From Kineococcus radiotolerans SRS30216 = ATCC BAA-149 (GTDB lineage: Bacteria > Actinomycetota > Actinomycetes > Actinomycetales > Kineococcaceae): a stretch of DNA of 32,000 nucleotides. Within the stretch, counting starts at the first letter, position 1. Each line of letters opens with the position of its first letter. The stretch is from contig NC_009664.2 of NCBI RefSeq assembly GCF_000017305.1, positions 210,001 through 242,000 on the forward strand. The letters run 5' to 3'. Position numbers and translations under genes: made by a program. Positions 3,571 to 32,000 of this stretch are shown here, piece after piece. The notes under the pieces are model-generated. The model ran no database searches. It saw nothing but the letters and a program-made list of their open reading frames with translations, and was not told the origin of the DNA.

Positions 3571-4895
3571 GGAGCCACCAGCCGCGCGCCCAGGGCCTGC
3601 GCGGTGCGGGGCGGGGAGAACAGGTAGCCCTGCGCGGTCGTGACGCCCAGGTCGGCGAGCATCCGGGCCTGCTCGGGCGTCTCCACCCCCTCGGCGACGA
3701 CCCCGCACCCCAGCTGCAGCCCCAGGCCGATCAGGGAGGACGTCAGCAGGTCGTCGCGCTCCGAGCGCCCCAGCGCGGCCACGAAGCAGCGGTCGATCTT
3801 TACCACGTCGGGCTGGAAGCGCTGCAGGTAGGCGTAGCTGGCGTAACCGGTGCCGAAGTCGTCCAGGGCCAGCCGCACCCCCCTCGCCCGGATCGCCGCC
3901 AGCGCGGCGTCCACCTGCGCGCCGGTGCCGGCCAGGGACGTCTCGGTCAGCTCCAGCGTCAGCGCCTGCGCGGGCAGACCGCTGACGAGCAGCGCGTCGG
4001 TGATCACGTCGACCACGTCCGGCTCGCCGAGCTGGCGTCCGGAGAGGTTGACCGCCACGTGCAGGTCGCGCGCCCCGCCACCGGCGCCGCCGCCCGTGGG
4101 CGGGGTGTCGCGCCACAGCGCCACCTGCGTGCACGCCAGCGTCAGCACCTGCCGTCCCAGCGGGACGATCAGACCGCTGGCCTCGGCCACCGGCAGGAAC
4201 GCCGCCGGGGCCAGCAGACCCCGCTGGGGGTGCTCCCAGCGCACCAGCGCCTCCACGCCCTCCCAGCGCCCGGTGGGCAGGTCCACCACCGGCTGGTAGT
4301 GCACCACCAGCTCCTGCGCGTCGATGCCGGCGCGCAGGGCGTGGCTCTCGTCCAGCACGTGGCGGGACCCCAGCCCGGCCGCGGCGTCGAGCCGGCGCAG
4401 CTCCAGCAGCTCCGCCACGCTGGTCGCCAGCGCGCTGAGGGCCTGCACGTCCGCCTCGGCGAAGTCGCGCGCCTCGCGGTCCATGACGCACAGCGCCCCC
4501 AGCGGCAGCCCGTCGCGGCCGATGATCGGGGCGCCGGCGTAGGCGCGGACCTGCTCCGGGCCGGTGACCATGGCGTTGTCGGCGAACCGCGCGTCGGTGC
4601 GGGCGTCGGGCACCACCAGCGTCCGCTCCTGCGCCACCGTCCAGGCGCAGAAGGACACGTCCCGCGACGTCTGCGGGGTCTCGTAGCCCAGGACCGCGCT
4701 CAGGTCGCGGGTGGAGGCGAACCACTGCCGGTCCTCGTCCACCAGGGAGATCGTGGCGGTGGGAGCGTCCAGCAGCCGCGCCGTCGCCGCCGCCAGGGCG
4801 TCGAGGGCCGCGTCGGCACCGGTGTCCAGCACCCGGTAGCTGCGCAACGACGCCAGCCGCTCGCCCTCGCGAGGGTGCAGAGGCGCTGCGGGCAC
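3567..4895 (-). CDS. GAF-EAL cyclic-di-GMP phosphodiesterase
   Basis: Track ORF 3567..4931. The N-terminal GAF reads ERLASLRSYRVLDTG...LLDAPTATISLVDEDRQWF...YAGAPII...GALCVMD. EAL motifs are YQPVVDL, VEALVRWEHP, ELTETSL, LDDFGTGYASYAYL, KIDRCFV, AEGVETPEQ and QGYLFSPP. I prefer the GTG at 4895 because GGAAGAGGAG lies 6 nt upstream. The track start at 4931 (GTG) is the alternative. Confidence 0.85.
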   Translation of the reverse strand: MPAAPLHPREGERLASLRSYRVLDTGADAALDALAAATARLLDAPTATISLVDEDRQWFASTRDLSAVLGYETPQTSRDVSFCAWTVAQERTLVVPDARTDARFADNAMVTGPEQVRAYAGAPIIGRDGLPLGALCVMDREARDFAEADVQALSALATSVAELLELRRLDAAAGLGSRHVLDESHALRAGIDAQELVVHYQPVVDLPTGRWEGVEALVRWEHPQRGLLAPAAFLPVAEASGLIVPLGRQVLTLACTQVALWRDTPPTGGGAGGGARDLHVAVNLSGRQLGEPDVVDVITDALLVSGLPAQALTLELTETSLAGTGAQVDAALAAIRARGVRLALDDFGTGYASYAYLQRFQPDVVKIDRCFVAALGRSERDDLLTSSLIGLGLQLGCGVVAEGVETPEQARMLADLGVTTAQGYLFSPPRTAQALGARLVAP

Positions 4896-5207
4896 GGTGG
4901 GCTCCTCTTCCCTCGCCCGCCGGCCGGCCACCCCGCGCGGGCTGCGCTCGGGTGGGCGGACGGGCGGTGGACGACATGCGGTCGGCTGGTGCTCGTCGGG
5001 ACGTGCGGGCGCCGCGAGGCGCCTGCCTCCAAGACCTCGGTGCCGGAACGGTCACCCTCGATCGCCCACCCGGGTGGTCGCGCCGCGTCCCCGGGGCGGG
5101 GTCCGTCCCCGGGCGCCGGAGCGGGCGGGGTGATCGGGGATGATGAGGCGCCCACCCGGGGCAGCTGGCACGACGCCAGACGACCACCTGGCGTCAGGAG
5201 GGACCAC

Positions 5208-8006
5208 GTGCCCAGCGGAGGAGACCACGTCCCCGGCCGGTCGCCCGGACCCCTGGCGGGCGGGCGACCCGACGGCGACGCCGCCGCGTCCTCCCCGGCG
5301 ACCGCGGTGGAGGCCGCCGCCCGGGCGCTGCGCGCCGACCCCGCCCGGCTCGCCGCCGCCCGCCGGCTGAGCCCCGGCGGGACCACCCTGCCCGGCCTGG
5401 ACCAGCTGGCCCACCTCGCCACCCAGCTCCTCGGTGCCCCCTCGGCGCAGATCTCCCTGCTCACCGACGTCGAGGCGATCGCCGGTGGGGTCGGGCCCCA
5501 GGCGGGGCGGGCCGGTGAGCAGGGGCCGCTCGGCCAGGCGCTGTGCTCGCTGACCGCCGCGTCGGGTGCTCCCCTGGCCATCGCCGACACCCGCGCCGAC
5601 CCCCGCGTCGCCGACCTGGACCCGGTCTCCTCCGGGGTGGTGGGGTCCTACCTGGGCATACCGCTCGCCGCCGGCGGGGGTGACGTGGTGGGTGCGGTGT
5701 GCGTGGGTGGCCCCGACCCCCGCGCGTGGAGCGAGCAGGACGTCGCCCTGCTGGAGCAGATCGGCGCCGCCGCCGCGGCCGAGCTGGAACTGGCCGCCCT
5801 CTCCGGCGAGCACGTCGCCGACCGGGCGCTGCTGCAGCTGACGGTCGACGCCGCGCAGCTGGGCACCTTCGACCTGGACCTCGTCACCGGGCGGCTGAGC
5901 ATGAACGAGCGGCTGCTGCAGCTGTCCGGGCTGACTCCGGAGACGTTCGACGGCACCCCTGAGGACGTGTACTCCCGCATCCACCCCGACGACCGCGAGG
6001 CCGCCGTCGCCGCGGTGAGGGCGGTCACCGCCGCCGGCGGGGTCTACGCCGCGGAGTACCGCATCCTCGACCCCGACGGCAGCACCCGCTGGCTCGCCGC
6101 CCGGGGCAGCACCCTGCCGGCCGGCGGCCCCGGGCCCGACGGGGCACCGGTGCGGCTGCTGGGCGTCGTCCACGACATCACCGCCGTGCGCGAGGGCGCG
6201 CAGCGCGTGGAGGAGATCCTGGACTCCATGGCCGTGGCCTACCTGGCCGTGGACGCGGGGTGGACGATCACCTACGCCAACGTCGAGGGCGAGCGGATCG
6301 CCGCCACCCCCCGCGAGGAGCTCATCGGCCGCAGCTTCTGGGAGGCCTTCCCCGCCACCGTCGGCACCGTCTTCGAGGACGGCTACCGCCGCGCCGTGAC
6401 CACCGGCGAGACGGTGACCTTCGACGCCTTCTACCCCGCCCCCCTGGACGTGTGGGTGGAGGTGCGCGCCGTGCCGGGGAACGGCGGGCTGGGCCTGTAC
6501 TTCCTCGACATCACCGCCCGCAAGACCGCCCAGCGGTCCGCCGAGGACGCGCGCCGGACCGCCGAGGCCGCCAACACCCGCCTGGCGCTGCTGGCCGCGA
6601 CCTCGCGGCAGATGTCGGAGACCCTCGAGGCCGAGCAGGCCGTGGCGCGCCTGGCCGAGCTGGTGGTCCCCGCCCTGGGCGACTGGTGCGTCATCAGCCT
6701 CCTCGACGACGACACCCCGGCCCGGACCTCGGCCTCCGCGCGCGCCGGCACCGCGGCCGGGCGCCCCGAGCGGCTGCGGCGGGGGCTGCACGACGCCGGG
6801 TCCTGGCACCACGACGAGAGGCTGCGCCCCCTGGTGGAGGAGTACGCCGCGCACCGCCTGGAGGAGCTGACCGACGCCGCCTTCGTGTGGCGGTCGCTGC
6901 GCCAGGCCCGCCCGGTCCTCGTCCCCGACGCCACCCGCGCCATCGGCGCCGTGCTGCGCCCGGACGGGCGGGTGCGCCCCCTGCTGGCCGAGCTCGCCCC
7001 CAGCTCCGCGGCGATCCTGCCGCTGCGCGGGCGCGGGCGCACCGTCGGGCTGATGACCCTCTTCGCCGGACCGGACCGCGCGCCCCTGGACGCCGAGGGG
7101 CTGACGGTGGCCGCCGAGGTCGCCGACCGCGCCGGCCTGGCCCTGGACTCCGCCCGCCTCTACCGCCAGCAGCGCGACCTGGCCGCCGCCTTCCAGCGCT
7201 CCCTGCTGAGCGAGCCGCCGGAGCCGGACCACGGGCAGATCGTCGTGCGCTACAGCCCCGCGGCCGAGGCCGCGCAGGTCGGGGGCGACTGGTACGACGC
7301 GTTCATGCAGCCGGGCGGGGCCACGGTGCTGGTCATCGGCGACGTCGTCGGCCACGACACCGAGGCCGCCGCGGCCATGAGCCAGGTCCGCACCATCGTG
7401 CGTTCCATGGGCGCCCTCGGCGACGAGTCCCCGGCGCGCGTCCTGGCCAAGACCGACCAGGCCATGGCCAACCTCATGATCTCCACCACCGCCACCGCCA
7501 TCGCCGCCCGCCTGGAGCAGAGCCTCGACGAGCGCGAGCGCGGGGTGACCCGGTTGCGCTGGTCCAACGCCGGGCACCCGCCGGCGATGGTCGTCCACCC
7601 CGACGGCAGCGTCCTGCCGCTGGTGAACCTGCACCCGGACCTGCTGCTGGGGGTGGTGCCCGGCACCGACCGCCGCGACACCGAGGTCGTCCTCGACCGC
7701 GGGTCCACCGTCCTCCTCTACACCGACGGCCTCGTGGAGCGCCGGGACCAGCCGCTGCAGGAGGGCCTGGAGGAGCTGCAGGCGGTGCTGGAGGACCTCG
7801 CCGCGCAGGACCACGACCTGGACACCCTCGTGGACCGCGTGCTGGCCCGGATGCTGCCGCCCACCCCGGAGGACGACGTGGCCGTCGTCGCGGTGCGCCT
7901 GCACCGCCAGGACCGGCCCCGCCCCGCCGAAGCCGGCCCGCAGAGGGTCCCGCCGCACGTGCCGCCGGAACCGGACGTCACGGGGCGGCGGCCCCGCCGG
8001 CGCTGA
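5208..8006 (+). CDS. Cytoplasmic GAF-PAS-PAS-GAF sensor fused to a PP2C (SpoIIE-like) serine phosphatase
   Basis: This is the downstream part of track ORF 4059..8006. GAF reads LLGAPSAQISLLTD...YLGIPLAA...GAVCVGG. PAS 1 reads FDLDLVTGRLSMNERLLQLSG...IHPDDREA...EYRILDPDGSTRWL...HDIT. PAS 2 reads LAVDAGWTITYANVEGERI...FLDITARK. A second GAF-like block reads GDWCVISLL...LPLRGRGRTVGLMTLF. PP2C motifs are GGDWYDAF, VIGDVVGHDTEAAAAM, WSNAGHPPAMV, LLYTDGLVERRD and DDVAVVAVRL. The GTG at 5208 is preceded by AGGAGGG (5196-5202). The GTG at 5130 is an alternative start. Confidence 0.85.
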   Translation: MPSGGDHVPGRSPGPLAGGRPDGDAAASSPATAVEAAARALRADPARLAAARRLSPGGTTLPGLDQLAHLATQLLGAPSAQISLLTDVEAIAGGVGPQAGRAGEQGPLGQALCSLTAASGAPLAIADTRADPRVADLDPVSSGVVGSYLGIPLAAGGGDVVGAVCVGGPDPRAWSEQDVALLEQIGAAAAAELELAALSGEHVADRALLQLTVDAAQLGTFDLDLVTGRLSMNERLLQLSGLTPETFDGTPEDVYSRIHPDDREAAVAAVRAVTAAGGVYAAEYRILDPDGSTRWLAARGSTLPAGGPGPDGAPVRLLGVVHDITAVREGAQRVEEILDSMAVAYLAVDAGWTITYANVEGERIAATPREELIGRSFWEAFPATVGTVFEDGYRRAVTTGETVTFDAFYPAPLDVWVEVRAVPGNGGLGLYFLDITARKTAQRSAEDARRTAEAANTRLALLAATSRQMSETLEAEQAVARLAELVVPALGDWCVISLLDDDTPARTSASARAGTAAGRPERLRRGLHDAGSWHHDERLRPLVEEYAAHRLEELTDAAFVWRSLRQARPVLVPDATRAIGAVLRPDGRVRPLLAELAPSSAAILPLRGRGRTVGLMTLFAGPDRAPLDAEGLTVAAEVADRAGLALDSARLYRQQRDLAAAFQRSLLSEPPEPDHGQIVVRYSPAAEAAQVGGDWYDAFMQPGGATVLVIGDVVGHDTEAAAAMSQVRTIVRSMGALGDESPARVLAKTDQAMANLMISTTATAIAARLEQSLDERERGVTRLRWSNAGHPPAMVVHPDGSVLPLVNLHPDLLLGVVPGTDRRDTEVVLDRGSTVLLYTDGLVERRDQPLQEGLEELQAVLEDLAAQDHDLDTLVDRVLARMLPPTPEDDVAVVAVRLHRQDRPRPAEAGPQRVPPHVPPEPDVTGRRPRRR

Positions 8007-9585
8007 GGGCGTCGGCGGGCAGGCCCGCCCGCAGCACGTCGAGGAGGGCCGCCTCCGGGCGCGGGGGGCTGTAGAGGTAACCCTGGACGGTGTCGCAGCC
8101 GTAGCGGCGCAACGACTCCGCCTGCTGCGGGGTCTCCACCCCCTCCGCCACCACCGACAGGCCCAGCGCGGCGCCGATGCTCAGCACCGCCCGCACGACC
8201 GCGTCGCAGCTGGGGTCGCGGCCCAGACCGGCGACGAAGGTGAGGTCGATCTTCAGCAGGTCCACGGGCAGCTCGGTCAGGCGGGCCAGGCTGGAGTAGC
8301 CGGTGCCGAGGTCGTCGATGGCGATGCGCACCCCGAGTTCGCGCAGGCGCTGCAGGTCACCGAGCAGCGAGTGCGTGATCCTCGGCATCGTGGTCTCGGT
8401 GAGTTCCAGGACCAGGCGGTGCGCGGGCAGCCCGTGGCGCCGCAGCGCACCGAGCACGTCCTCGCTCAGGGACGCGGACTCCAGTTGGCGCCCGGAGACG
8501 TTGACGTGCACCGCCGGCGCGGCCGGGCCCAGGGCCGCGCCCCAGCTGGCGGCGAGCCGGCAGGACTCCTCCAGCACCCGCCGGCCCAGGGCCAGCATGA
8601 GGGGGCTGTCCTCGGCGACGTCGAGGAACTCGGCCGGGGAGAGCAGGCCGCGGGTGGGGTGCTGCCAGCGCACGAGGGTCTCCACCGCCACGGGGTGCCC
8701 GGTGGCGAGGTCGAGCACGGGCTGGCCGTGCACGACGAGCTCGTCGCGTTCCAGCGCGGTGCGCAGTTCGGGCAGGATCCGGGCGGCGCGGTGGCTGCGG
8801 ACCTGGTGCTCGTCGCTGCCGTCGTCGAGGTGGACGCGGTTCTTGCCCCCGCGCTTGGCCTCGTACATGGCGCGGTCGGCGCGGGCCAGGGCCTGCTCGG
8901 CGCAGGAGCGGACGTCGCGGTCGCCGCCGGACGGGGTGGGTGCGCCGGTGGGGACGACGAGGTGGGTCCCGACGCTGACCCCCACGGCGAACGTGCCCGC
9001 CCGCACGGTGACCGGCTCGCGCAGGGAGTGCAGCAGCCGTTCGGCGACGACCTGCAGGCCCTGGCGGTCGGCGAGGTCGGGGCAGACGACGGCGAACTCG
9101 TCCCCGCCCAGACGCGCCAGGGTGTCGCCCGGGCGCAGGCACCCGCCGAAGCGGGCCGCCACCTCGCGCAGCAGCTCGTCGCCCGCGGCGTGCCCGGCGG
9201 AGTCGTTGACCGCCTTGAACCCGTCCAGGTCGCAGAACAGCACCCCCACCCCCGCCCCGCTGCGCCCGGCCGCGGCCAGGGCGTGCTCGAGGCGGTCGTG
9301 CAGCAGGGTGCGGTTGGGCAACCCCGTCAGCCCGTCGTGCAGCGCCTGGTGGCGCAGCGCCAGCTCGGCGGCCTTGCGGGCGGTGACGTCCTCGATGAGG
9401 CACAGCAGCTGCGGCCCGGAACCGGCTGCGGCGGAACCGGTGACGCCGCTCATGGCGGTGGCCGAGAGCAGACCCCACCGCACCGTGCCGTCGGTGTGGC
9501 GGAAGCGCAGTTCCAGCTCGTCGTGGGTGCGTTCACCCAGCAGCAGCGGCGCGAAGGCCAGCAGGGAGTCGGCCTGGTCGTCGGG
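7978..9585 (-). CDS. C-terminal fragment of the frameshifted gene: second half of the fourth PAS domain, GGDEF and EAL
   Basis: GGDEF motifs are HDGLTGLPNRTLL, VLFCDLDGFKAVNDSAGHAAGDELL, RPGDTLARLGGDEFAVV (an RxxD I-site plus GGDEF) and MYEAKRGGKNRV. EAL motifs are GQPVLDL, VETLVRWQHP, ELTETTM, IDDLGTGYSSL, KIDLTF, AEGVETPQQ and QGYLYSPP. Only the homology-supported part is given. No convincing independent start was identified. Confidence 0.55.
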   Translation of the reverse strand, partial: PDDQADSLLAFAPLLLGERTHDELELRFRHTDGTVRWGLLSATAMSGVTGSAAAGSGPQLLCLIEDVTARKAAELALRHQALHDGLTGLPNRTLLHDRLEHALAAAGRSGAGVGVLFCDLDGFKAVNDSAGHAAGDELLREVAARFGGCLRPGDTLARLGGDEFAVVCPDLADRQGLQVVAERLLHSLREPVTVRAGTFAVGVSVGTHLVVPTGAPTPSGGDRDVRSCAEQALARADRAMYEAKRGGKNRVHLDDGSDEHQVRSHRAARILPELRTALERDELVVHGQPVLDLATGHPVAVETLVRWQHPTRGLLSPAEFLDVAEDSPLMLALGRRVLEESCRLAASWGAALGPAAPAVHVNVSGRQLESASLSEDVLGALRRHGLPAHRLVLELTETTMPRITHSLLGDLQRLRELGVRIAIDDLGTGYSSLARLTELPVDLLKIDLTFVAGLGRDPSCDAVVRAVLSIGAALGLSVVAEGVETPQQAESLRRYGCDTVQGYLYSPPRPEAALLDVLRAGLPADALSAGGAAAP

Positions 9586-11528
9586 TGGATGAGGTCGTGC
9601 ACGTCGCGGGTCAGCAGCTGCGCGGCGCTGAGGCCGGTGAAGGCGCACGAGGTGGAGTTGACCTGCAGGACGCGCGCCGCGTCGTCCTCCCCGAGCCCGA
9701 CGATCACCATCGCGACCGGCGCGGTGTCGAAGGCGAGGCGGAAGCGCTGCTCGGACTCGGCCAGGCGCTCCCGGTCGGCGCGCTGGCGGGTGACGTCCTC
9801 GACGTGGGTGACCGCGTAGCGGGCCTCGCCGTCCTCGCCGTGGATGACGGCGACGTCCAGCGCGACCCAGATCACCGCCCCGTCGGCCCGGACGTACCGC
9901 TTCTCCAGGTGCACGGTGGACGCCTCCCCGCTCAGCAGCCGGCGCACCTGCGCCTGGGAGGAGGGCAGGTCCTCGGGGTGGGTGACGTCGGCGAAGGTCT
10001 TGCCCAGCAGCTCCTCGCGCAGGTGGCCCAGCATCGTGCACGCGGTGGGGTTGACGTCGAGGAAGCGCCCCGCCTGCTCACCGCTCAGGGCGGTGAGCAG
10101 CACGCCGGTGGGGGCGTGGGTGAAGGCGAGGCTGAAGCGCCGTTCGGCCTCGCGCAGGGCGGCCTCCGCGCGCAGGCGCTCGGTGATGTCGCGCGCGGCG
10201 ATGGAGGCGCCCACGACGGCGCCGGCGGCGTCGAGCACGGGGGAGACGGTGATCGAGACGTCGACGGCGCTGCCGTCGCGGTGGCGCCCGACCTGGTCGG
10301 CGGCGGTGGTGGAGGTGACGTCCTCCCCGGCCGCGGCCCGGACCAGCCAGCCGCCGAGGCGCTGCACGTCGTCGGCGGAGGCGACGAGGTGCAGGTCCGC
10401 GCCGACCGCGTCCTCGGCCGGGTAGCCGTACAGCTGCTCGGCCGCGGCGTTCCAGGACGTGATGCGCCCGGTCAGGTCCACGGCGACGATCGCGTCGCGG
10501 GCGCCGGCGACGATGCCGGCCAGGGAGTGCAGTTCCCGTTCCATGCGGCGGCGGTCGGTGACGTCGCGGATCGCGGCGTAGACCCGGCGCTGCTCCCCGG
10601 TCCGCACGGGGGTCAGGGTCAGCTCGATGCTCAGCGCGGCGCCGTCGCGGCGGACGGCGGGGACCTCCAGGGTGCTGCTGAGCTCGCGGGTCCCGGTGCG
10701 CAGGAACCGCTCGAAACCCCCTGTGTGGGCCGCGGCCATCGCCGGCGGCACGATCGTGTCCACCAGGCTGCGCCCCACGGCCTCCTCGGCCGTCCACCCG
10801 AACAACCGTTGCGCGGCAGCGTTCCAGGACGTGATGCGCTGGTCCTCGTCGACGGCCAGGAAGGCGTCGCTGGTCGCGGCCAGCACCAGGCGCAGTTCCG
10901 CGTCGCGGGCGCTCAGCCGCTCCGCCCGGGCGGCGTGCTCGCGGGCCTGCTCGGCGTTCCGGCGCGCCTGCTGCGCGTACTCCTCGGCCAGCCGGGCCTG
11001 GCGGCGGCGCTCGAAGAGGGCCACCACGACCCGGGCCAGCCGCTCCAGCGCGCTGAGCTGGGCCGGGGTGAGCTCCCCGGGTTCGGTGTCGAACACGCAC
11101 AGGCTGCCCAGGGCGTGCCCCTGCGGGCTGATCAGCGGCGCGGAGGCGTACAGCCGCACCCGACCCAGCCGGCCGTCCACCCACGGGTTGGTGCGGTAGC
11201 GCTCGTCGAGGGCGGCGTCGGGGAGGTGCACGACCTCGCCGCCGGTGAAGTGCAGCGCGCACATCGAGTCCGCGCGGGCGGAGTCGGTGCCCTCGAAGCC
11301 GACGGTGGTGAGCTGGCACTGGCGGTGCTCGTCGATGAGGTTCAGCGTCGCGTGGGGCACCCCGGCGACCATCGCCGCGGTGTGCACGACGTCGTCCAGT
11401 TCCGCGTCCGCGGGGGCGTCCAGCACGCCGTAGGCGTGCAGCACCGCCAGCCGCTGCCGCTCGACGGACAGCCCGGGGTGTTCCTGGTCCTCGATCACGG
11501 GCGTCACGGGCTTCACCTGCGCGGTCAT
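9450..11528 (-). CDS. N-terminal fragment of the frameshifted gene: GAF, a coiled coil, three PAS domains and the first half of a fourth
   Basis: GAF reads QRLAVLHAYGVLDAPADAELD...ATLNLIDEHRQ...LYASAPLISPQGHALGSLCVFD. The PAS domains carry LAVDEDQRITSWNAAAQRLFGW, VAVDLTGRITSWNAAAEQLYGY and FLDVNPTACTMLGH...THPEDL. After the shift point this frame reads 44 non-homologous codons and stops at 9450. Confidence 0.6.
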   Translation of the reverse strand: MTAQVKPVTPVIEDQEHPGLSVERQRLAVLHAYGVLDAPADAELDDVVHTAAMVAGVPHATLNLIDEHRQCQLTTVGFEGTDSARADSMCALHFTGGEVVHLPDAALDERYRTNPWVDGRLGRVRLYASAPLISPQGHALGSLCVFDTEPGELTPAQLSALERLARVVVALFERRRQARLAEEYAQQARRNAEQAREHAARAERLSARDAELRLVLAATSDAFLAVDEDQRITSWNAAAQRLFGWTAEEAVGRSLVDTIVPPAMAAAHTGGFERFLRTGTRELSSTLEVPAVRRDGAALSIELTLTPVRTGEQRRVYAAIRDVTDRRRMERELHSLAGIVAGARDAIVAVDLTGRITSWNAAAEQLYGYPAEDAVGADLHLVASADDVQRLGGWLVRAAAGEDVTSTTAADQVGRHRDGSAVDVSITVSPVLDAAGAVVGASIAARDITERLRAEAALREAERRFSLAFTHAPTGVLLTALSGEQAGRFLDVNPTACTMLGHLREELLGKTFADVTHPEDLPSSQAQVRRLLSGEASTVHLEKRYVRADGAVIWVALDVAVIHGEDGEARYAVTHVEDVTRQRADRERLAESEQRFRLAFDTAPVAMVIVGLGEDDAARVLQVNSTSCAFTGLSAAQLLTRDVHDLIHPTTRPTPCWPSRRCCWVNAPTTSWNCASATPTARCGGVCSRPPP

Positions 11529-11618
11529 CGGCAGGTGAGCCCCGCGCCTTGAGCCCCCTCGCCCGAACCGTCCGGCGACCCGGTCACGTCCCCCGGCCGG
11601 ATCGGTCAGGATGATCCC

Positions 11619-12368
11619 GTGAGCCACAGCCCCGGAGAACAGCAGCCACCCCGCGAGGCGGCGCCGGTCACCCCGGCCGGCGAGGAGCGCCTCGAGCAGC
11701 ACCTGGCCCGCCTGGCCCTGGAGCTGCACGAGGAGGAGTCCCCCCAGGCGGTGATGGAGCGCATCGTGGCCGCCGCGGCCGCGCTGGTACCCGGCGCCCA
11801 GGACGCCACCATTACCCGGGTGCGCGGCAAGCACGTCACCTCCGCCGCCGCCACCGACGACCGTGGGCGCGGCCTGGACGCCCTGCAGGACCAGACCGGC
11901 CAGGGACCCTGCCTGAGCACCCTCTTCGAGCAGGACCTCACCCTCGTCGGGGACCTCAGCACCGACGAGCGCTGGCCGGAGCTGGCCGCGCGGGTAGGGG
12001 AAGTGGGTTTGCGCAGCATGCTGTGCCTGCGTCTCTACGTCGCCGGGGACAACCTCGGCGCCCTGGACCTGGTCTCCTCCACCCCCGGCGCCTTCGACGA
12101 GGAGTCGGCGGAGATCGGGCAGCTGTTCGTGAGCCACGCGGCGGTCGCGCTGGCCGCGACGGAGAAGATGAGCAACCTGCGGGTGGCCGTCGCCAGCCGC
12201 GACGTGATCGGGCAGGCCAAGGGCATCCTGATGGAGCGGTTCAAGATCACCGCTGACCAGGCGTTCGCCCTGCTCAGCCGCGTCAGCCAGGACACCAATC
12301 GCAAGCTGCGCGAGGTCGCCGACGAGCTGGCCACGACCGGGCACCTGCGGCGGCCGACGCAGCGCTGA
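11619..12368 (+). CDS. GAF-ANTAR RNA-binding (antitermination-type) regulator
   Basis: Track ORF 11619..12368, GTG start. The GAF-like N-terminus reads GQGPCLSTLFEQ...LRSMLCLRLYVAGDNLGALDLVS. The C-terminal ANTAR signature reads LRVAVASRDVIGQAKGILMERFKITADQAFALLSRVSQDTNRKLREVADEL. Confidence 0.85.
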   Translation: MSHSPGEQQPPREAAPVTPAGEERLEQHLARLALELHEEESPQAVMERIVAAAAALVPGAQDATITRVRGKHVTSAAATDDRGRGLDALQDQTGQGPCLSTLFEQDLTLVGDLSTDERWPELAARVGEVGLRSMLCLRLYVAGDNLGALDLVSSTPGAFDEESAEIGQLFVSHAAVALAATEKMSNLRVAVASRDVIGQAKGILMERFKITADQAFALLSRVSQDTNRKLREVADELATTGHLRRPTQR

Positions 12369-12668
12369 ACCCGGACCCTGCCCTGGGGGACGCCGAACCA
12401 CTGACCTGCCGGGTCCGTCTCGCGGCCCCGGCGGCGTGCAGCGCGGCACCCGCACGACGACCGTTTTCCCGAAATCCAGTGCACTGCAGCAGATGTGCTG
12501 GACACTGCGATGCAGGCGGGTTGGGGCGCAACGACTCCCCACCCCACCCAACCCCACCTCCGGTGGCGCGAGGGCGATCACCAGTCGTACCGTCATCCCC
12601 AGTCGGGCTCCTGCACGGCCCCGGCGACCCGAACGACCCGGTCACACCCCACCCGCAGGAGGAACCCC

Positions 12669-13235
12669 GTGAACAAGACCGAGATGGTCGACGCCCTCGA
12701 AACCCGACTCGGCGGCCGCAAGGAAGCCACCGCCGCCGTCGAAGCCGTCATCGAACTCATCCAGCTCACCGTCGCCAAGGGCGACAAGATCGCCATCAGC
12801 GGCTTCGGCACCTTCGAGAAGCAGGCCCGCAACGCCCGCACCGGCCGCAACCCCCGCACCGGCGAAGCCGTCAAGATCAAGAAGACCTCCGTACCCCGCT
12901 TCCGCCCCGGCACCGCCTTCAAGGAGATCGTCTCCGACACCAAGGCCCTGCGCGCCTACCAGGGCGAGCTGAAGGCCAAGACCACCGGCACCGCACCCAC
13001 CGCGAAGACCGCCACCAAGACCGCCACCAAGACGGCCACCGCGAAGACGGCCACCCCGGCCCGCACGGCGGCGACGAAGACCGCTCCGGCCAAGACCGCT
13101 CCGGCGCGCACCACCGCGACCAAGACCACCCCGGCCAAGACCACCCCGGCCAAGACCACCCCGGCCAAGACCACTGCGACCAAGACCACCGCAGCGAAGA
13201 AGACCACCACCCGCCGGACCGCCACGAAGGCCTGA
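12669..13235 (+). CDS. hupB: HU-family nucleoid-associated protein with a long Thr/Lys/Ala/Pro repeat C-terminal tail (actinobacterial HupB/Hlp/HupS type)
   Basis: The HU fold motifs are NKTEMVDAL, GDKIAISGFGTFEKQARNARTGRNPRTGEAVKIKKTSVPRFRPG and FKEIV. The tail reads AKTATKTATKTATAKT...TTPAKTTPAKTTPAKT...KKTTTRRTATKA. The GTG at 12669 has AGGAGG (12657-12662) 6 nt upstream. The track start at 12495 adds 58 non-HU residues and is rejected. Confidence 0.9.
   Translation: MNKTEMVDALETRLGGRKEATAAVEAVIELIQLTVAKGDKIAISGFGTFEKQARNARTGRNPRTGEAVKIKKTSVPRFRPGTAFKEIVSDTKALRAYQGELKAKTTGTAPTAKTATKTATKTATAKTATPARTAATKTAPAKTAPARTTATKTTPAKTTPAKTTPAKTTATKTTAAKKTTTRRTATKA
13128..13172 (+). repeat. Three perfect tandem copies of the 15-bp unit ACCCCGGCCAAGACC (encoding TPAKT) inside the HU tail
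   Basis: The copies were read directly at 13128-13142, 13143-13157 and 13158-13172. Degenerate copies flank them across about 12970-13232. Confidence 0.9.
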
Positions 13236-13261
13236 CCCGCGACGACCTCGTCCCGGCCGCC

Positions 13262-13296
13262 CGAGGCCCCCGCCCCTCCACAGTGCGGGGGCCTCG
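13262..13296. terminator. Bidirectional GC-rich hairpin between the convergent HU and acyltransferase genes
   Basis: cgaggcccccgc (13262-13273) pairs perfectly with gcgggggcctcg (13285-13296) as a 12-bp stem with an 11-nt loop. It lies 27 nt after the HU stop and 8 nt after the acyltransferase stop. Confidence 0.5.
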
Positions 13297-13303
13297 CACT
13301 GCC

Positions 13304-14554
13304 TCAGCGGCGCTCCCCCGGCGAGCTCGCCCGGGTGACCCAGGCGGCGTCCTTCCAGCCCAGGACCGGGTGCTCGACGAGGTTCCAGGACAGGGCGGCG
13401 ACCACGGCGGTGACGGCCAGGCTGAGCAGGACGAACGGCACGGTCGTGACGGCGGTGGCCCCGGCGGCGACCAGGACCTGCGCGATCGGCCAGTGCCACA
13501 CGTACACGCCGTAGGAGAGGTCCCAGCGCAGGTTGCACCGCAGCGGCGACCGCACCACCGCGTAGAGGACGACGTAGGCGAAGGCGGGCCCGGCCAGGGC
13601 GCGGTGGTCGGGCAGCAGGTACAGGCCGGCCACGACGAGGACGACGCTGACCAGGGCCAGGCTCCCGCGGACGGGGACGCGGTCAGCGAACAGGTGCGCG
13701 GCGGCACCGAGCAGGAAGACGAACGCGAAGCGCAGCATCAACTCCGAGCCCAGCGGGTTGAACCCGGCGGTGGCGGCGATGGTCAGCACCCACAGCCCGC
13801 CCAGCAGGGCCAGCACCACCCACCGCCGGCGACGGAGGACGCCGAGCACGCCGAGGACGGCGACGATCCCGTAGCAGGCGGCTTCGAAGAACAGCGTCCA
13901 CAACGCCCCGTTGAGCACGTCCGGGGCGCCACCGAGACCGGGCAGTCCGGCGATGCCGAACTGGCGCATCAGCAGGGCCGCGTTGGCGCTGAGGTAGCTC
14001 AGCGCGGAGTCCGGGCCGGTGAAGACCGAGGTGGCGGAGCGGCCGGTCAGGACCGCGAGCAGGGGGGCGATGACCGCGGCGGTCAGCAGCAGGCTGAGCC
14101 AGAAACCGGGCAGGATGCGCAGCGCCCGGTGCCACAGGTAGCGGCGCAACGAGTTCAGCCGCAGGTAGCTGGCTGCCACCAGGAACCCGCTGAGGACGAA
14201 GAAACCGTCCACGGCCAGGCTGCCCAGGTCGGTGGAACCGGTGCGAGGCTGGTGGCCGAAACCCAGCAGCGTGGTGTGCACCACCGCGACGGTGGCGGCC
14301 AGGACCAGGCGCAGGACGTCGAGGGAGTTGCTGCGCGGGTCGAAGGCCGTGGCCAGCGTGGACCCGGTTCTCCTCGCGGCCGCCGGGGGCGACGAGGGCG
14401 CGGCGGCGCGCGGACGGGGGAAGAGCGGACGGGAGCGGTCGCCGGTCCCCGCCGCGGGCGGGGGCTCGGGCGGGGGGCCGGGTGCGGACGCACCGGGGGG
14501 CACGCGCCGGGAGGGGTCCGCCGGTGGCGTGGGGCGGTCGGGGGCAGGGCTCAC
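13304..14554 (-). CDS. Integral-membrane acyltransferase, family 3 (O-acyltransferase type)
   Basis: Track ORF 13304..14554. The family signature reads NSLDVLRLVLAATVAVVH...DGFFVLSGFLVAASYLR...RALRILPGFW, followed by about 10 hydrophobic segments. The first roughly 85 aa are Pro-rich with no recognisable domain, so the start (GTG at 14554) is uncertain. Confidence 0.8.
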   Translation of the reverse strand: MSPAPDRPTPPADPSRRVPPGASAPGPPPEPPPAAGTGDRSRPLFPRPRAAAPSSPPAAARRTGSTLATAFDPRSNSLDVLRLVLAATVAVVHTTLLGFGHQPRTGSTDLGSLAVDGFFVLSGFLVAASYLRLNSLRRYLWHRALRILPGFWLSLLLTAAVIAPLLAVLTGRSATSVFTGPDSALSYLSANAALLMRQFGIAGLPGLGGAPDVLNGALWTLFFEAACYGIVAVLGVLGVLRRRRWVVLALLGGLWVLTIAATAGFNPLGSELMLRFAFVFLLGAAAHLFADRVPVRGSLALVSVVLVVAGLYLLPDHRALAGPAFAYVVLYAVVRSPLRCNLRWDLSYGVYVWHWPIAQVLVAAGATAVTTVPFVLLSLAVTAVVAALSWNLVEHPVLGWKDAAWVTRASSPGERR

Positions 14555-27852: not shown

Positions 27853-28677
27853 TCAGCCACCCGAGCAGCAGCGCCGGGTCTGCTCGACGAGCCGTCCGGC
27901 GGCGTCCAGCGCGATCGTGAGCCCGCCCGGCCCACCGCCGACGGCCGCGAAGATCGAGTCGACCTCCTCACCGAACGCCTCGGGCGCTCCCGGCAGTCGC
28001 CCGGTGGCCGCGACCAGGCCCTTCTCGTTCACCACCCAGCGTCCGGCGCGGGCGTGCAGGGCGTGGGCGCACAGCATGACCGCGCGGAACAGGCAACCGG
28101 CCACGTAGGCGCCGTCGCCGCGCGGTGCGGCCTTGCGGGCACCTCCGACGATGAACTCCGCTTCCGCGAGCGCGTCGACGACCGCGTCGCGCAGCGGTGC
28201 GGGGTAGGTGCCGGCAGCCACGTGCAGGGCGGTCAACTCCCCGGTGGTGTCGGCCAGGACGACGGCCAGGGCCGCTTCCCCGGCGTAGGCGAAACTCGGG
28301 AAACCCAGCGGGTGCCCGACCTGGAAGTGCCAGGCGAACCTGCCCCCGCGCGCCTCCTGCCAACTGCGCTGGACGCGGTCCAGGTCCCGGTAGATCCAGT
28401 CCACGGCCGTGCCGTCGATGGTCAACCAGCCGCCGCCGTCGACCCACGGCCCCCACTGCCCGACCGGCGTCACCCGCGCCTCGTCGCCGGCGACCCGGCG
28501 GGCCAGGGCGCCCAGCGCGGCCACGTCCAGCGGCGGGCGGTAGTACAGCCCGAGGTCGACGTCGGAGGCCGGGGTGTGATCACCCCGGGCCCGGCTGCCG
28601 CCGAGCGCGACGGCCTCGACGCCGGCCACCCCCACCAGCTCCCGGGCCAGCGTCCGCAGGTACGCATCGCTGAGCAC
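27853..28677 (-). CDS. Nucleotidyltransferase-domain protein (Pol-beta superfamily, KNTase/ANT-like architecture with a helical C-terminal domain)
   Basis: Track ORF 27853..28677. The NTase signature is ALGGSRARGDHTPASDVDLGLYY (GS-x9-12-D-x-D). The C-terminal helical region contains FRAVMLCAH, an R-x6-H pattern as in HEPN-like domains. The substrate is unknown. Confidence 0.8.
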   Translation of the reverse strand: MLSDAYLRTLARELVGVAGVEAVALGGSRARGDHTPASDVDLGLYYRPPLDVAALGALARRVAGDEARVTPVGQWGPWVDGGGWLTIDGTAVDWIYRDLDRVQRSWQEARGGRFAWHFQVGHPLGFPSFAYAGEAALAVVLADTTGELTALHVAAGTYPAPLRDAVVDALAEAEFIVGGARKAAPRGDGAYVAGCLFRAVMLCAHALHARAGRWVVNEKGLVAATGRLPGAPEAFGEEVDSIFAAVGGGPGGLTIALDAAGRLVEQTRRCCSGG

Positions 28678-28883
28678 CGGGACAGTCTGCCGCGACCGGC
28701 CCGGGCGCGCGCGCCCCTCCGGCCCGCAGCGCAGGCGCCGGGCCCGCGGGTTAACCTCGTGGAGGGTGATCGCCGGTCACCCACCTGCTACCCAGGAGAA
28801 GAGCAGATCATCACCAGTCCCACCCGTTCGTCGTCCGGCCAGGTCACCACCTGGACCCCCGCGCTCGCGCACCGGGGGGTCTG

Positions 28884-31280
28884 ATGGCCACGGGTGCGTC
28901 GATGCAGCCGGGGTCGTTCACCCCCGGGTACGGGGCGGTCGACCTGACCACGTGCGAACGGGAGCCGATCCACATCCCCGGCGCGATCCAGCCGCACGGG
29001 GTGCTGCTGGCCGTGGAGCGGGGCGACCACCGGGTGGTGGTGGCCTCCGCGAACGCCGCGGGGTTCTTCGGGCGACCGCTGCCGGAGGTCCTGAGCAGTT
29101 CCCTGGCCGACCTGCTCGGTGCCGACCTCACCGAGCGGGTGCGGGGCGCCGACCTGCTGGACAACCTGGACGAGGTCCTGCACGCGCGCCTGCCGGGGCC
29201 CGGGGGTTCGGCCGGCGCCGACGCGGTGGAAGCCGACGTGGTGCTGCACGTCTCCGGTGAGCGGCTCGTGGTGGAGATCGAACCCTCCCCGCCGCACACG
29301 GCTCCGGTGAGCTACCGCGCCACCCGCGGCGCCATCGCCCGCCTGGCGGGAACCCGCGGGATCGAGGGGTTGTGCGAGCGCCTGGTGCGCGAGGTCCGGG
29401 TCCTGACCGGTTTCGACCGGGTGATGGCCTACCGCTTCGACGCGCAGTGGAACGGCGAGGTCATCGCCGAGGACCGCCGCGAGGACCTCGACACCTTCCT
29501 GGGCCTGCACTACCCCGCCTCCGACATCCCCGCCCAGGCGCGCCGGCTGTACACGCTGAACTGGATGCGGCTGATCGCCGACGTCGACTACGTCCCCTCC
29601 CCCCTGCACCCCCTCCTCGACCCCGGCACCGGCGCGCCGCTGGACCTGTCGCACTCGGTGCTGCGCAGCGTCTCGCCCATCCACGTCGAGTACCTGAAGA
29701 ACATGGGCGTGGGGGCGTCCATGTCCATCTCCCTCATCGTCGAGGGACGCCTGTGGGGGCTGGTCGCCTGCCACCACTACTCCGGCGCCCACCGGCCGGG
29801 CTACGACGCCCAGTCGGCGGCGGAGTTCCTGAGCCAGACCGCCTCCCAGCTCATCGGGGAACGGGCCCGCTCCCAGGAGCGCGACGGGGCCCTAGCCGCG
29901 CAGGAACTCCTCTCCGACATCACCGCCGCCGTCTCAGCCAGCGGCCGCGAACCGCTGACCACCCTCATCGAGGAACCCCGCCTGCTGCAGCTGCTCGACG
30001 CCGGGGGCGCGGCGCTGTGGACGGGGCACGAACTGCTCACCAGCGGGCAGGTGCCGCCGTCGGCGCAGTTGCGCCGCATCGCCGCGCTGCTGGCCCGCGC
30101 CGACGGCGCTCCCACCTTCACCGACCACCTGCCCACCCTGGACCCGGGCCTGGCGGAGGTCGCCCAGACCGCGGCCGGGGCGCTGCGGGTGGGGATCGAC
30201 GGCACCGGGTGGCTGCTGTGGCTGCGTCCGGAACGGCCCCGCCTCCTGGACTGGAGCGGGGATCCGCACCACGCCGAGATCACCCGGGTCGAGGGCCTGG
30301 AGGTGCGCATCAGCCCCCGCAAGAGCTTCGAGAAGTGGAGCGAGGTCGTGCGCGGTCGCAGCACCACCTGGCGTTCGTGGCACGCCGCCACCGCGGACCG
30401 GCTCCGCACCCAGGTCACCGGGATCATGCTGGGGCGCTCCCGCGGCCAGATCGCCATCGCCGAGTCCCTGCAGCGGGCCGTCGTGCTCGACGAGGCACCG
30501 CACGTGCCCGGCGTGGAGGTCCTGGCCCGCTACCGCCCCGCCGAGGGCAGCCAGCTCGGCGGGGACTGGTGGGACGTGCTGCCGCTGGAGGCGGGGCGGG
30601 TGGCCATCGTCGTCGGTGACGTGGCCGGGCACGGCGTGCACGCGGCGGCCGCGATGGCGCAGCTGCGCACGGCGCTGCGCGCCTACCTGCTGGAGGGGCA
30701 CTCCCCCGCCTCCGCGCTGGACCGGCTCGACACCCTGGTGAGCACCCTGCTGGGCAACCACACCGCCACCGCCCTCATCGCCGTGGTCCACCCCGCCGGC
30801 GACCACGCCGACGGCGGCGGCGTCGATCCCGGCCGCGATCCCGGTCCCCGCGTCGACGACGGGGCGGCGACGATCGAACTGGCCAGCGCCGGGCACCTCC
30901 CGCCCCTGCTCGTCGACGCCGCCGGCACCAGCGTCGTCCACGTGCCGTCGCGTCCGATGCTCGGCCTGGGTTTCGGCCCCACCGCCGGTCTGGTCAGCGA
31001 GAGCGTCCGGGCTCCCCTGCCGCCGGGCGCGGTGCTGCTGATGTACACCGACGGCCTGGTGGAACGACGCGACGCCGGTCTGGAGGAGACCACCGGCGTG
31101 CTCGCGGAGACGGCCACCCGCGCGGCCGCGGACCTGCTCCCCCGGTCCCGAGGGGGGATGGCGGCGGTGGCGGACCGGCTGCTGACCGCCGTGCCCGGTG
31201 ACGCCGGCGACGACACCACCCTGGTCCTCGTCCGGCCGGCGCACCCCGCCGCGGAGCCGGCGGCCCGCACCGAGGGGTGA
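28884..31280 (+). CDS. bphP: Bacteriophytochrome photosensory core (PAS2-GAF-PHY, biliverdin type) fused to a PP2C/SpoIIE-family phosphatase output
   Basis: Track ORF 28884..31280. The chromophore Cys context is VDLTTCEREPIHIPGAIQPHGVLL. GAF reads FDRVMAYRFDAQWNGEVIAE, HYPASDIPAQARRLY, RSVSPIHVEYLKNMGV and LWGLVACHHY. The PHY tongue reads ISPRKSFEKWSE. The output domain has GGDWWDVL, VVGDVAGHGVHAAAAMAQLR, SAGHLPPLLV, LLMYTDGLVERRD and DDTTLVLVR. There is no H-box or HATPase motif. Confidence 0.9.
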   Translation: MATGASMQPGSFTPGYGAVDLTTCEREPIHIPGAIQPHGVLLAVERGDHRVVVASANAAGFFGRPLPEVLSSSLADLLGADLTERVRGADLLDNLDEVLHARLPGPGGSAGADAVEADVVLHVSGERLVVEIEPSPPHTAPVSYRATRGAIARLAGTRGIEGLCERLVREVRVLTGFDRVMAYRFDAQWNGEVIAEDRREDLDTFLGLHYPASDIPAQARRLYTLNWMRLIADVDYVPSPLHPLLDPGTGAPLDLSHSVLRSVSPIHVEYLKNMGVGASMSISLIVEGRLWGLVACHHYSGAHRPGYDAQSAAEFLSQTASQLIGERARSQERDGALAAQELLSDITAAVSASGREPLTTLIEEPRLLQLLDAGGAALWTGHELLTSGQVPPSAQLRRIAALLARADGAPTFTDHLPTLDPGLAEVAQTAAGALRVGIDGTGWLLWLRPERPRLLDWSGDPHHAEITRVEGLEVRISPRKSFEKWSEVVRGRSTTWRSWHAATADRLRTQVTGIMLGRSRGQIAIAESLQRAVVLDEAPHVPGVEVLARYRPAEGSQLGGDWWDVLPLEAGRVAIVVGDVAGHGVHAAAAMAQLRTALRAYLLEGHSPASALDRLDTLVSTLLGNHTATALIAVVHPAGDHADGGGVDPGRDPGPRVDDGAATIELASAGHLPPLLVDAAGTSVVHVPSRPMLGLGFGPTAGLVSESVRAPLPPGAVLLMYTDGLVERRDAGLEETTGVLAETATRAAADLLPRSRGGMAAVADRLLTAVPGDAGDDTTLVLVRPAHPAAEPAARTEG

Positions 31281-31289
31281 ACCGCACCG

Positions 31290-31352
31290 CGCCGCCGGAT
31301 CCGGCGGCGGACGGCAGCACGGGAACGGACCGGCGCCCGACGGGGGCGCCGG
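31290..31352 (+). terminator. Two tandem GC-rich hairpins in the 89-bp spacer between the phytochrome and heme oxygenase genes; possible partial terminator or processing site
   Basis: CGCCGCCGGATCCGGCGGCG (31290-31309) is a perfect 20-bp palindrome. CCGGCGCCC (31330-31338) pairs with GGGCGCCGG (31444-31352 is not implied; the pairing arm is 31344-31352) around a 5-nt loop. Neither hairpin has a U-tract. Confidence 0.35.
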
Positions 31353-31369
31353 CAAACGGTGGGAGAACG

Positions 31370-32000
31370 GTGGACGGGAACGACGTGCGGCGGGGAGCGG
31401 GACCGGGCGGCCCGGGCGCGCTGGAGCGGGTGCGGGCCGCCACGGCGGCTGCCCACGAGCGCCTCGACGCCGGCCTGGACGTCCTGCAGCGCCCCTGGAC
31501 CCTCGACGTGCACCGGCAGTGGCTGTCGCTGACGTGGGGGCTGCTCGCGCCGCTGGAACGCGGGCTGGCCGCCTGGGCCGCCGCCGACCCCGGTGCGCTG
31601 GACGTGCGCGAGCGCGCCCGCGCCGACCTCGCCCGGGCGGACCTGCGCGAACTGGGCGTCGACGACGCCGAGCTCGCCGCCCTGGCCGAGTGCCCCGACG
31701 TGCCGGTCCCCACGACCCGCGCCGCGGCCCTGGGCGTCTGCTACGTCCTCGACGGGTCCACCCTCGGCGGCCGGCTCATCGCCCGGGCGGCGGTGGCCGC
31801 CGGGGTACCGCCGCGGGCGTGCACCTCGCTGACCGGGCGCGAAGGGTCCGGGCGGCGGTGGAAGGACACCACGGCCGCGCTGAACGCCGTCGACGACGAC
31901 GCCGTCGACGAGATCTCCGACGTCGCCACCGCGACGTTCACCGCCTACGAGCGGTGGCTGGCGCCCCTGAGCGCACGGCGAACTCCCCCCGCGGGGAGCG
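31370..32000 (+). CDS. bphO: Heme oxygenase-like protein (BphO-type, biliverdin-producing). The 3' end runs off the window.
   Basis: This ORF is absent from the track because it has no stop in the window. I translated it by hand from the GTG at 31370: VDGNDVRRGAGPGGPGALERVRAATAAAHERLDAGLDVLQ...WLSLTWGLLAPLE...AALGVCYVLDGSTLGGRLIARAA...FTAYERWL. The AAHERLD His and the YVL(E/D)GS.LGG motif are heme oxygenase hallmarks. GC3 is very high. The start is uncertain, with the GTG at 31385 as an alternative. Confidence 0.7.
   Translation, partial: MDGNDVRRGAGPGGPGALERVRAATAAAHERLDAGLDVLQRPWTLDVHRQWLSLTWGLLAPLERGLAAWAAADPGALDVRERARADLARADLRELGVDDAELAALAECPDVPVPTTRAAALGVCYVLDGSTLGGRLIARAAVAAGVPPRACTSLTGREGSGRRWKDTTAALNAVDDDAVDEISDVATATFTAYERWLAPLSARRTPPAGS

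Follow-up and report, generated by a model that had tools for sequence, protein, structure and literature searches.

The 32,000-nucleotide window that we analysed (Kineococcus radiotolerans SRS30216 = ATCC BAA-149, contig NC_009664.2, positions 210,001 to 242,000 of the forward strand) encodes, at 28884..31280 on the + strand, a 798 amino acid protein in which a complete bacteriophytochrome photosensory module is joined to a SpoIIE/RsbU-type PPM phosphatase domain, in the order PAS_2-GAF-PHY-linker-SpoIIE/PPM. All nucleotide coordinates given below are positions in this window. We refer to the gene as the phytochrome-PPM gene. Across its relatives, the residues of the chromophore pocket and of the catalytic site are conserved and the linker between the two halves is nearly invariant in length, and in some relatives genes for a STAS protein and an RsbW-like kinase lie next to the phytochrome-PPM gene. 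Based on these observations, we consider it probable that the protein works by light-gated dephosphorylation of a phosphorylated STAS anti-sigma-factor antagonist; we infer that its catalysis is under the control of light, that it acts as a dimer, and that the substrate in K. radiotolerans is such a STAS protein.

The reading frame at 28884-31280 opens with ATG 28884, the first start codon past the upstream in-frame stop, and has a third-position GC content of 0.94, as expected of a genuine gene in DNA of 75% GC. The translated protein is 100% identical to the NCBI entry 'SpoIIE family protein phosphatase [Kineococcus radiotolerans]', that is, the gene is already annotated in this organism. 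An initial annotation, made from the nucleotide sequence, had claimed the hallmarks of a bacteriophytochrome in the N-terminal part of the protein and a complete SpoIIE/PP2C domain in the C-terminal part. Pfam searches agree with both claims, as PAS_2, GAF, PHY, and SpoIIE were each found above the curated cut-off, and all of the motifs that had been quoted were recovered. In the photosensory half these are TTCEREPIHIPGAIQPHG at amino acid 22 (with Cys24), PASDIP at 211, SPIHVEYL at 264, and PRKSFEKW at 478, and in the output half they are GDWWD at 560, GDVAGHG at 578, YTDGLVERRD at 721, and DDTTLVLV at 776. The relatives of this protein range in total length from 730 to 870 amino acids.

In the photosensory half, the predicted biliverdin attachment codon is the TGC of Cys24 (28953..28955, + strand), which aligns to the Cys of 'DLTNCDREPIHIPGAIQPHG' in the Stigmatella BphP 6bap. 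The PAS_2 domain (amino acids 24-134, 28953..29285, + strand; PF08446, 7.5e-17) is followed by the GAF bilin-pocket domain with Asp214 of the DIP motif and His267 (amino acids 161-323, 29364..29852, + strand; PF01590, 3.1e-14) and by the PHY domain including the tongue (amino acids 348-518, 29925..30437, + strand; PF00360, 3.2e-47). The PRxSF tongue motif, here P478 R479 K480 S481 F482, is encoded at 30315..30329 on the + strand. C24, D214, H267, P478, R479, S481, and F482 are invariant in all of the full-length relatives (118/118), and H297 and H298 (CHH) are invariant in a 71-sequence alignment. The residue preceding His267 is Ile, with SPIH instead of SPCH, leaving the GAF domain without a Cys, which we take to be the mark of a biliverdin-type rather than a phycocyanobilin-type phytochrome. 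The same pattern extends to divergent cluster representatives at 37-50% identity: the N-terminal Cys is kept in all of the full-length ones (a further one is truncated at the N-terminus and gave no score for it), and the GAF Cys is present in none.

Comparison with solved structures points the same way. In a phmmer search of the PDB, amino acids 14-519 matched the photosensory module of the Stigmatella aurantiaca BphP with E = 4.7e-105, and identity to photoactive BphPs is 33-39% across the whole photosensory module. We built an AlphaFold2 model of the monomer from 71 sequences (mean predicted local distance difference test score, pLDDT, 87.5), and its N-terminal 500 residues align by Foldseek to solved PAS-GAF-PHY modules with a target-normalised template modelling score (TM-score) of ~0.8-0.87. 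When the whole model was used as the Foldseek query, the 50 matches listed were phytochrome sensor modules only, and the PPM half was unrepresented. Judged by its domain order, Cys placement, pocket residues, and tongue motif, the protein is a biliverdin-type bacteriophytochrome, and it would be expected to bind biliverdin and to photoconvert reversibly between the Pr and Pfr states.

The SpoIIE/RsbU-type PPM phosphatase domain spans amino acids ~540-785 (30501..31238, + strand; PF07228, 1.4e-36) and scores 126.7 bits against a Pfam cut-off of 25. The match falls into two stretches, the best of which is 657-784, and what divides it is a Gly/Asp/Pro-rich insertion of ~25 amino acids in a PPM loop (amino acids ~637-661, 30792..30866, + strand), which we located by comparing C-terminal segments. 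None of the 17 diverse relatives compared has this insertion, and it is predicted to be disordered (block pLDDT 53-66). The nearest solved relative of the PPM domain is the Mycobacterium tuberculosis Rv1364c phosphatase 3ke6 (1.2e-23 with the single sequence and 7.6e-44 with a family profile), a partner-switching phosphatase; SpoIIE, at 7.8e-12 against the PPM family profile, and RssB-type proteins rank after Rv1364c. In the profile alignment, GGDWWD, GDVAGHG, YTDGL, and DDTT lie opposite SGDSYS, SDGMGNG, SDGI, and DDMT of SpoIIE. The metal ligands of SpoIIE are Asp610, Asp628/Gly629, Asp746, and Asp795 (PMC3517971), and the predicted ligands D561, D579, D723, and D776/D777 of the K. radiotolerans protein align to SpoIIE D610, D628, D746, and D795.

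Loss of a metal-binding Asp would argue against the complete PP2C domain claimed in the initial annotation, and we found all of them present. All of the relatives (118/118) share the predicted ligands D561, D579, D723, D776, and D777, and also D564, G582, H583, and G584. Invariance of every metal-binding Asp, and of GDVAGHG and TDGLVE as well, is the pattern expected of an active enzyme under purifying selection. By profile and by metal ligands the domain belongs to the SpoIIE-RsbU subfamily, and Mn2+-dependent phosphoserine phosphatase activity is predicted for it.

In the AlphaFold2 model the two halves are joined by a continuous helix running from the PHY domain to the PPM domain (amino acids 498-533, 30375..30482, + strand; block pLDDT 84-97). 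This helix holds a conserved A526-E527-S-L-Q530-R531 motif, and we take AESLQR to be the alpha0 helix of the PPM domain. Matches to phytochromes in the PDB extend to about amino acid 532, and unrelated sensor-PPM proteins align from about amino acids 519-526, at AESLQR. Given that the limits of the two homologies overlap in this way, the fusion point lies inside the continuous helix.

The length of this connection hardly varies. The distance from PRxSF to GGDWWD is 81 amino acids in 120/120 close relatives, and among 51 more divergent representatives it is 81 in 44, 80 in 6, and 96 in 1; between amino acids 478 and 564 there are zero gap columns among 118 sequences. Along the linker, hydrophobic periodicity is strongest at 3.6 residues and not at 3.5, which supports an amphipathic helix and does not prove a coiled coil. 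A near-fixed linker length would be consistent with register-sensitive transmission, and signal transmission that is sensitive to linker register has been described for the PadC cyclases (PMC9587094). In PPM phosphatases, crossing helical linkers dimerise and activate the catalytic domains, and it has been proposed that sensor-PPM proteins generally work in this way (PMC12143880). The one representative with a spacing of 96 is a 364 amino acid fragment (P0243), in which PRxSF and GGDWYD are 15 residues, or about four helical turns, further apart; it may be a natural linker-length variant.

To place the protein in a family, we scanned one genome per species by tblastn with the tongue-plus-PPM segment as query. 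The 531 candidate loci that resulted are an upper bound; the threshold may admit other SpoIIE proteins or other phytochromes, and we inspected the best 80 of the 531. All of these 80 span the query end to end, and they come from Kineococcus, Nocardioides, Aeromicrobium, Motilibacter, and actinobacterial metagenome-assembled genomes (MAGs). The phytochrome-PPM family is not rare, as it comprises at least 80 species-level loci and up to 531.

The neighbourhoods of these loci bear on the substrate. Neighbouring genes were called with a crude caller based on third-position GC content, supplemented by six-frame hidden Markov model (HMM) searches, and were then clustered. Two recurrent products stood out, a small protein matching Pfam STAS (6e-12) and a 138 amino acid protein matching HATPase_c_2, the RsbW-type kinase fold (8.9e-20). 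In 22/78 loci the phytochrome-PPM gene has a STAS gene no more than 2 kb away, in most of them as its direct neighbour and often at a distance of 1-40 nucleotides or overlapping it, and in 11 of the 22 a gene for an RsbW-like protein accompanies the STAS gene. Nearly all of the STAS open reading frames (ORFs) found anywhere in the flanks (32/33) fall within the nearest 23% of the flanking DNA (binomial p ~1e-19, uncorrected for relatedness). Most of these 32 are on the same strand as the phytochrome-PPM gene, 14 downstream and 12 upstream, while 5 are upstream and divergent and 1 is downstream on the opposite strand. The phosphorylatable site of the adjacent STAS proteins is Ser in 22/23 and Thr in 1/23. 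In Nocardioides deserti (locus L043), the genes for the phytochrome-PPM (8606-10855), the STAS protein (10919-11227), and the RsbW-like kinase (11200-11616) stand side by side, with coordinates here counted within that locus. A partner-switching substrate of the STAS/anti-sigma type had been suggested for the K. radiotolerans protein in the initial annotation, and these counts from relatives give that suggestion independent support.

Immediately downstream of the phytochrome-PPM gene is a BphO-like heme oxygenase gene (31370..32000, + strand), recognised by Pfam PF01126 and by the names of its homologs, which runs off the end of the window. The frame from GTG 31370 is open up to that end, for 210 codons. 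On the public contig (locus L001 of our scan) the complete protein has 219 amino acids if it starts at GTG 31370 and 250 if it starts at GTG 31277, where the public gene call begins and overlaps the phytochrome stop codon as GTGA. We favour the start at 31370 because a GGGAG Shine-Dalgarno box lies 4 nucleotides upstream of it and because the homologs are 195-217 amino acids long. The original claim that a heme oxygenase gene adjoins the phytochrome gene holds up; the gap of 89 bp given for it is right if GTG 31370 is the start, the start being ambiguous between 31277 and 31370, and the gene itself is cut by the window end.

The match to the Pfam Heme_oxygenase profile covers profile positions 5-202 of 204. 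Homologs are annotated 'biliverdin-producing heme oxygenase', and one at 36% identity 'bacteriophytochrome heme oxygenase BphO'; one source labels a homolog as beta/delta-forming. At least 95% of 38 homologs retain H60 (H29 of the 219 amino acid form) and Y156-V157-x-x-G160-S-T-L-G164-G165, in the numbering of the 250 amino acid form. We take this His and the YVxxGSTLGG segment to be the proximal heme ligand and the distal Gly-rich helix of heme oxygenases. Conversion of heme to biliverdin, perhaps to the IX-alpha isomer, is predicted for the product of this gene.

A search of the DNA of other loci by tblastn found, in 13 other Kineococcus-type loci (these include L005, L009-L013, L015, L016, L018, L019, L032, and L065), a heme oxygenase homolog directly upstream of the gene for the phytochrome, and among the loci compared only K. 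radiotolerans has it downstream. In the Nocardioides and Aeromicrobium loci, tblastn detected no heme oxygenase adjoining the phytochrome gene. Several Kineococcus genomes have two phytochrome-PPM paralogs, with a heme oxygenase detected at one only; in SYSU DK003, for example, it is found at L019 and not at L006.

Taken as a whole, the mechanism that we propose would run as follows. The neighbouring heme oxygenase would produce biliverdin from heme, and the biliverdin would become attached to Cys24 and be seated in the GAF pocket. Red and far-red light would interconvert Pr and Pfr, with refolding of the PRxSF tongue of the PHY domain. The fixed-length helix at amino acids 498-533 would carry the movement from the PHY domain to the first helix of the phosphatase, probably within a parallel homodimer, and repositioning of the regulatory helices of the phosphatase would alter the competence of the metal site. 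The active enzyme, Mn2+-dependent and of the RsbU/SpoIIE type, would then dephosphorylate a STAS anti-sigma-factor antagonist at its conserved Ser, and the dephosphorylated antagonist would sequester an RsbW-like anti-sigma kinase so that a sigma factor is released.

Several observations weigh against this mechanism, and a first set of them concerns the substrate. Neither the six-frame HMM search of the window nor Pfam scans of its called genes turned up a gene for a STAS protein, an RsbW-like protein, or a sigma factor, which bears out the remark in the initial annotation that the window encodes no partner-switching substrate. The closest Kineococcus loci likewise have none of the three within 10 kb, and over that distance no Kineococcus locus was found to have a STAS or RsbW-like gene, apart from distant RsbW-like matches in L006 and L007. 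The STAS adjacency comes from Nocardioides and Aeromicrobium relatives at ~50% identity and is uncorrected for shared ancestry. The protein could accordingly be a light-regulated phosphatase whose substrate in Kineococcus is not a STAS protein, and is instead a target of a Ser/Thr kinase or some other signalling protein encoded nearby. In favour of this reading, in L001 a gene for an APH-like kinase-fold protein follows the heme oxygenase gene, and the window encodes two more SpoIIE phosphatases and several cyclic di-GMP and ANTAR regulators. Set against this, the PPM domain falls in the SpoIIE/RsbU Pfam family and has Rv1364c as its nearest solved relative, and STAS genes are strongly enriched beside orthologs with an identical linker and identical catalytic residues. 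Substrates of the SpoIIE/RsbU subfamily of PPM phosphatases are, moreover, usually encoded elsewhere in actinobacterial genomes, and we regard a non-STAS substrate as unlikely.

A second set of observations concerns the sensor. The tongue (amino acids 457-485) is modelled with low confidence, the resting (dark) state is not indicated by the model, and photoconversion is not something that a sequence can prove. The PAS-GAF-PHY module might be no longer a reversible photoswitch and might report the availability of heme or biliverdin, redox state, or temperature, with the phosphatase responding to the loading of chromophore and not to the colour of light, and some bacteriophytochromes do respond to temperature as well as to light. 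Against such a reading stand the invariance of Cys24, the DIP Asp, His267, His297/His298, and the PRxSF motif and the 33-39% identity to photoactive BphPs, and we find it very doubtful. The score of the neighbouring gene against the Pfam heme oxygenase profile is also a marginal pass, at 24.5 bits against a cut-off of 23, and its best match to a sequence in the PDB is weak (5.5e-4).

The remaining points concern the output half and its coupling to the sensor. The AlphaFold2 model is of a monomer and is silent on the proposed dimeric linker, and the PPM domain of K. radiotolerans bears the disordered insertion of 25 amino acids that its relatives lack. That the domain is a non-catalytic adaptor or scaffold, a pseudo-phosphatase of the RssB type in which light alters binding and not hydrolysis, might be argued from this insertion and from the RssB-like response regulators with PPM folds among the distant PDB matches, but with the metal-binding Asp residues, GDVAGHG, and TDGLVE all invariant in 118/118 relatives it is very unlikely. 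Dephosphorylation of a STAS antagonist under the control of light remains the reading that we prefer.

To our knowledge, characterised bacteriophytochromes signal via histidine kinases, diguanylate cyclases, or protein-protein interaction. The K. radiotolerans protein resembles DrBphP of Deinococcus radiodurans and SaBphP2 of Stigmatella aurantiaca in its PAS_2-GAF-PHY order, its N-terminal biliverdin Cys, its DIP and PRxSF motifs, its helical exit from the PHY domain, and its adjacent bphO-type heme oxygenase gene. It differs from both in its output, a SpoIIE/RsbU-type PPM domain in place of the dimerisation and histidine phosphotransfer domain and the catalytic ATPase domain. The NCBIfam equivalog model for BphPs with a histidine-kinase output, NF041576, gives it 382 bits against the 1040 required, over profile positions 7-517 of 622, and the 798 amino acid protein has no HisKA or HATPase match in Pfam. 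NCBIfam holds no specific model for the phytochrome-PPM architecture or for this heme oxygenase.

The comparison can be extended to other outputs. In PadC (IsPadC; PMC9587094), as in the arrangement proposed here, a bacteriophytochrome drives a non-kinase enzyme via a length-constrained helical linker, although the effector there is a GGDEF domain and not a serine phosphatase. PadCs form several linker-length families, whereas the phytochrome-PPMs form essentially one, of 81 amino acids, with rare cases of 80 and one outlier of 15 residues more. RsbU, RsbP, RsbZ, OsaC, and Rv1364c (PMC12143880) share with the protein an N-terminal sensor, a helical linker, a SpoIIE-family PPM domain, and conserved metal ligands, but only the phytochrome-PPM has a complete phytochrome photosensory module as its sensor. 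That study does not mention phytochromes, and it raises the question of how shared sensor domains control PPM phosphatases. YtvA, a LOV-STAS protein of the Bacillus sigma-B stressosome, likewise brings light into a partner-switching or sigma-factor pathway. The differences from YtvA are that the chromophore is a bilin and not a flavin, that the light is red/far-red and not blue, and that the photoreceptor is itself the phosphatase and not an upstream component of the stressosome.

The initial annotation described this architecture as noticed in domain surveys and as not known to have been characterised, and the literature agrees. LOV-SpoIIE fusions have been catalogued in surveys (PMC4844311), and a 2022 survey states that bacteriophytochromes can control 'phosphatase activities' and lists a 'SpoIIE/PPM-type phosphatase domain' effector in the key to its Fig. 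2 (PMC9587094). In a literature search whose coverage mostly excluded subscription journals, we came across no study of a phytochrome-PPM, whether biochemical, structural, or genetic, and none of direct control of a PPM phosphatase by a photoreceptor. In the PDB, each of the 60 matches listed for a tongue-plus-PPM profile is to the PPM part or to the phytochrome part, and never to both. Karniol et al. in 2005 (Biochem J), and later reviews from the Vierstra laboratory, reportedly drew a PP2C-bearing BphP of K. radiotolerans. The phytochrome-PPM architecture is catalogued and widespread in actinobacteria.

Upstream of the phytochrome-PPM gene, a divergent intergenic region of 206 bp (28678..28883), the presumed promoter site, separates it from a nucleotidyltransferase-like gene (27853-28677, - strand); a gene for a TetR regulator also lies upstream and divergent. 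A scan of 28500-32000 found no sigma-70 consensus and no terminator, a result that is weakly informative for an actinobacterium of 75% GC and is silent on co-transcription. We also considered the conserved neighbours in other Kineococcus loci as partner-switching genes and rejected them, as none is STAS-like or RsbW-like when representative sequences are judged by eye; by the same criterion they resemble an aldo-keto reductase, ANTAR and GAF-ANTAR regulators, arsenic-resistance genes, a sugar-binding protein, and a LacI regulator. The GAF-ANTAR or small ANTAR-like genes (again by eye) recur one or two genes upstream of the heme oxygenase-phytochrome pair in Kineococcus L013, L016, and L032. 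The window has a GAF-ANTAR gene confirmed by Pfam at 11553-12368 (+ strand), 17 kb from the phytochrome gene, and the recurrence is possibly coincidental.

Some relatives carry unexpected organism names. Phytochrome-PPM and heme oxygenase proteins at 60-65% identity to those of Kineococcus are recorded under 'MAG: Janthinobacterium lividum' (P0015, locus L018) and 'Paenibacillus sp. TRM 82003' (P0039 and P0141), and in L018 a Kineococcus-like heme oxygenase gene lies upstream of the phytochrome gene. These records look less like cases of horizontal transfer than like Kineococcus contigs that were mis-binned or are contaminants.

The two additional SpoIIE phosphatases of the window are a PAS-SpoIIE protein at 1-1749 (- strand), cut by the window start, and a GAF-PAS-PAS-SpoIIE protein at about 5052-8006 (+ strand), and no STAS gene accompanies either of them in the window. 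The ORF listed for the latter, 4059-8006, probably starts later than its first codon, given that the opposite strand carries a GAF-EAL gene at 3567-5051. At 7978-12596 (- strand), an ORF with a GAF and four PAS domains (9450-12596) and a GGDEF-EAL ORF (7978-10041) occupy different frames, with an overlap of ~590 nucleotides. Third-position GC content indicates that the coding frame switches near 9500-9590, upstream of the stop of the GAF and four-PAS ORF, so this could be either two genes that overlap or a single GAF-PAS-GGDEF-EAL gene with a frameshift, whether as a pseudogene or through an error of assembly. An HU-family DNA-binding protein is encoded at 12495-13235 (+ strand; Pfam Bac_DNA_binding, 7.9e-26). 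Its Lys/Thr/Ala/Pro-rich C-terminal tail derives from a 15-nucleotide tandem repeat, AAGACCACCCCGGCC x 7.6 (KTTPA), at 13005-13190, and this repeat explains the AT skew (+0.35) and the lower GC content of 12001-14000.

As the gene is annotated and the architecture is catalogued, we see the value of this family in experiment and not in discovery. The Nocardioides deserti trio is a natural cognate set for reconstitution in vitro and bears on the question of how sensors control PPM phosphatases (PMC12143880). The near-invariant spacing of 81 amino acids would allow a clear-cut test of whether kinases, cyclases, and PPM phosphatases can all be driven by the same sensors through a single helical-linker mechanism, and, if our reading is true, a light-switchable Ser/Thr phosphatase would be useful as an optogenetic tool or template. 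We regard it as evenly balanced whether the members of this family are natural serine phosphatases that are switched by red and far-red light and pass that signal directly into sigma-factor partner switching. If catalysis is indeed controlled by light, actinobacteria that are common in soil and on leaves would have a link from red/far-red sensing to alternative sigma factors. In Kineococcus, given that no STAS gene is linked to the phytochrome-PPM gene and that three SpoIIE phosphatases lie within 32 kb, the protein might be a light input shared with other inputs for stress, in an organism that tolerates both radiation and desiccation.

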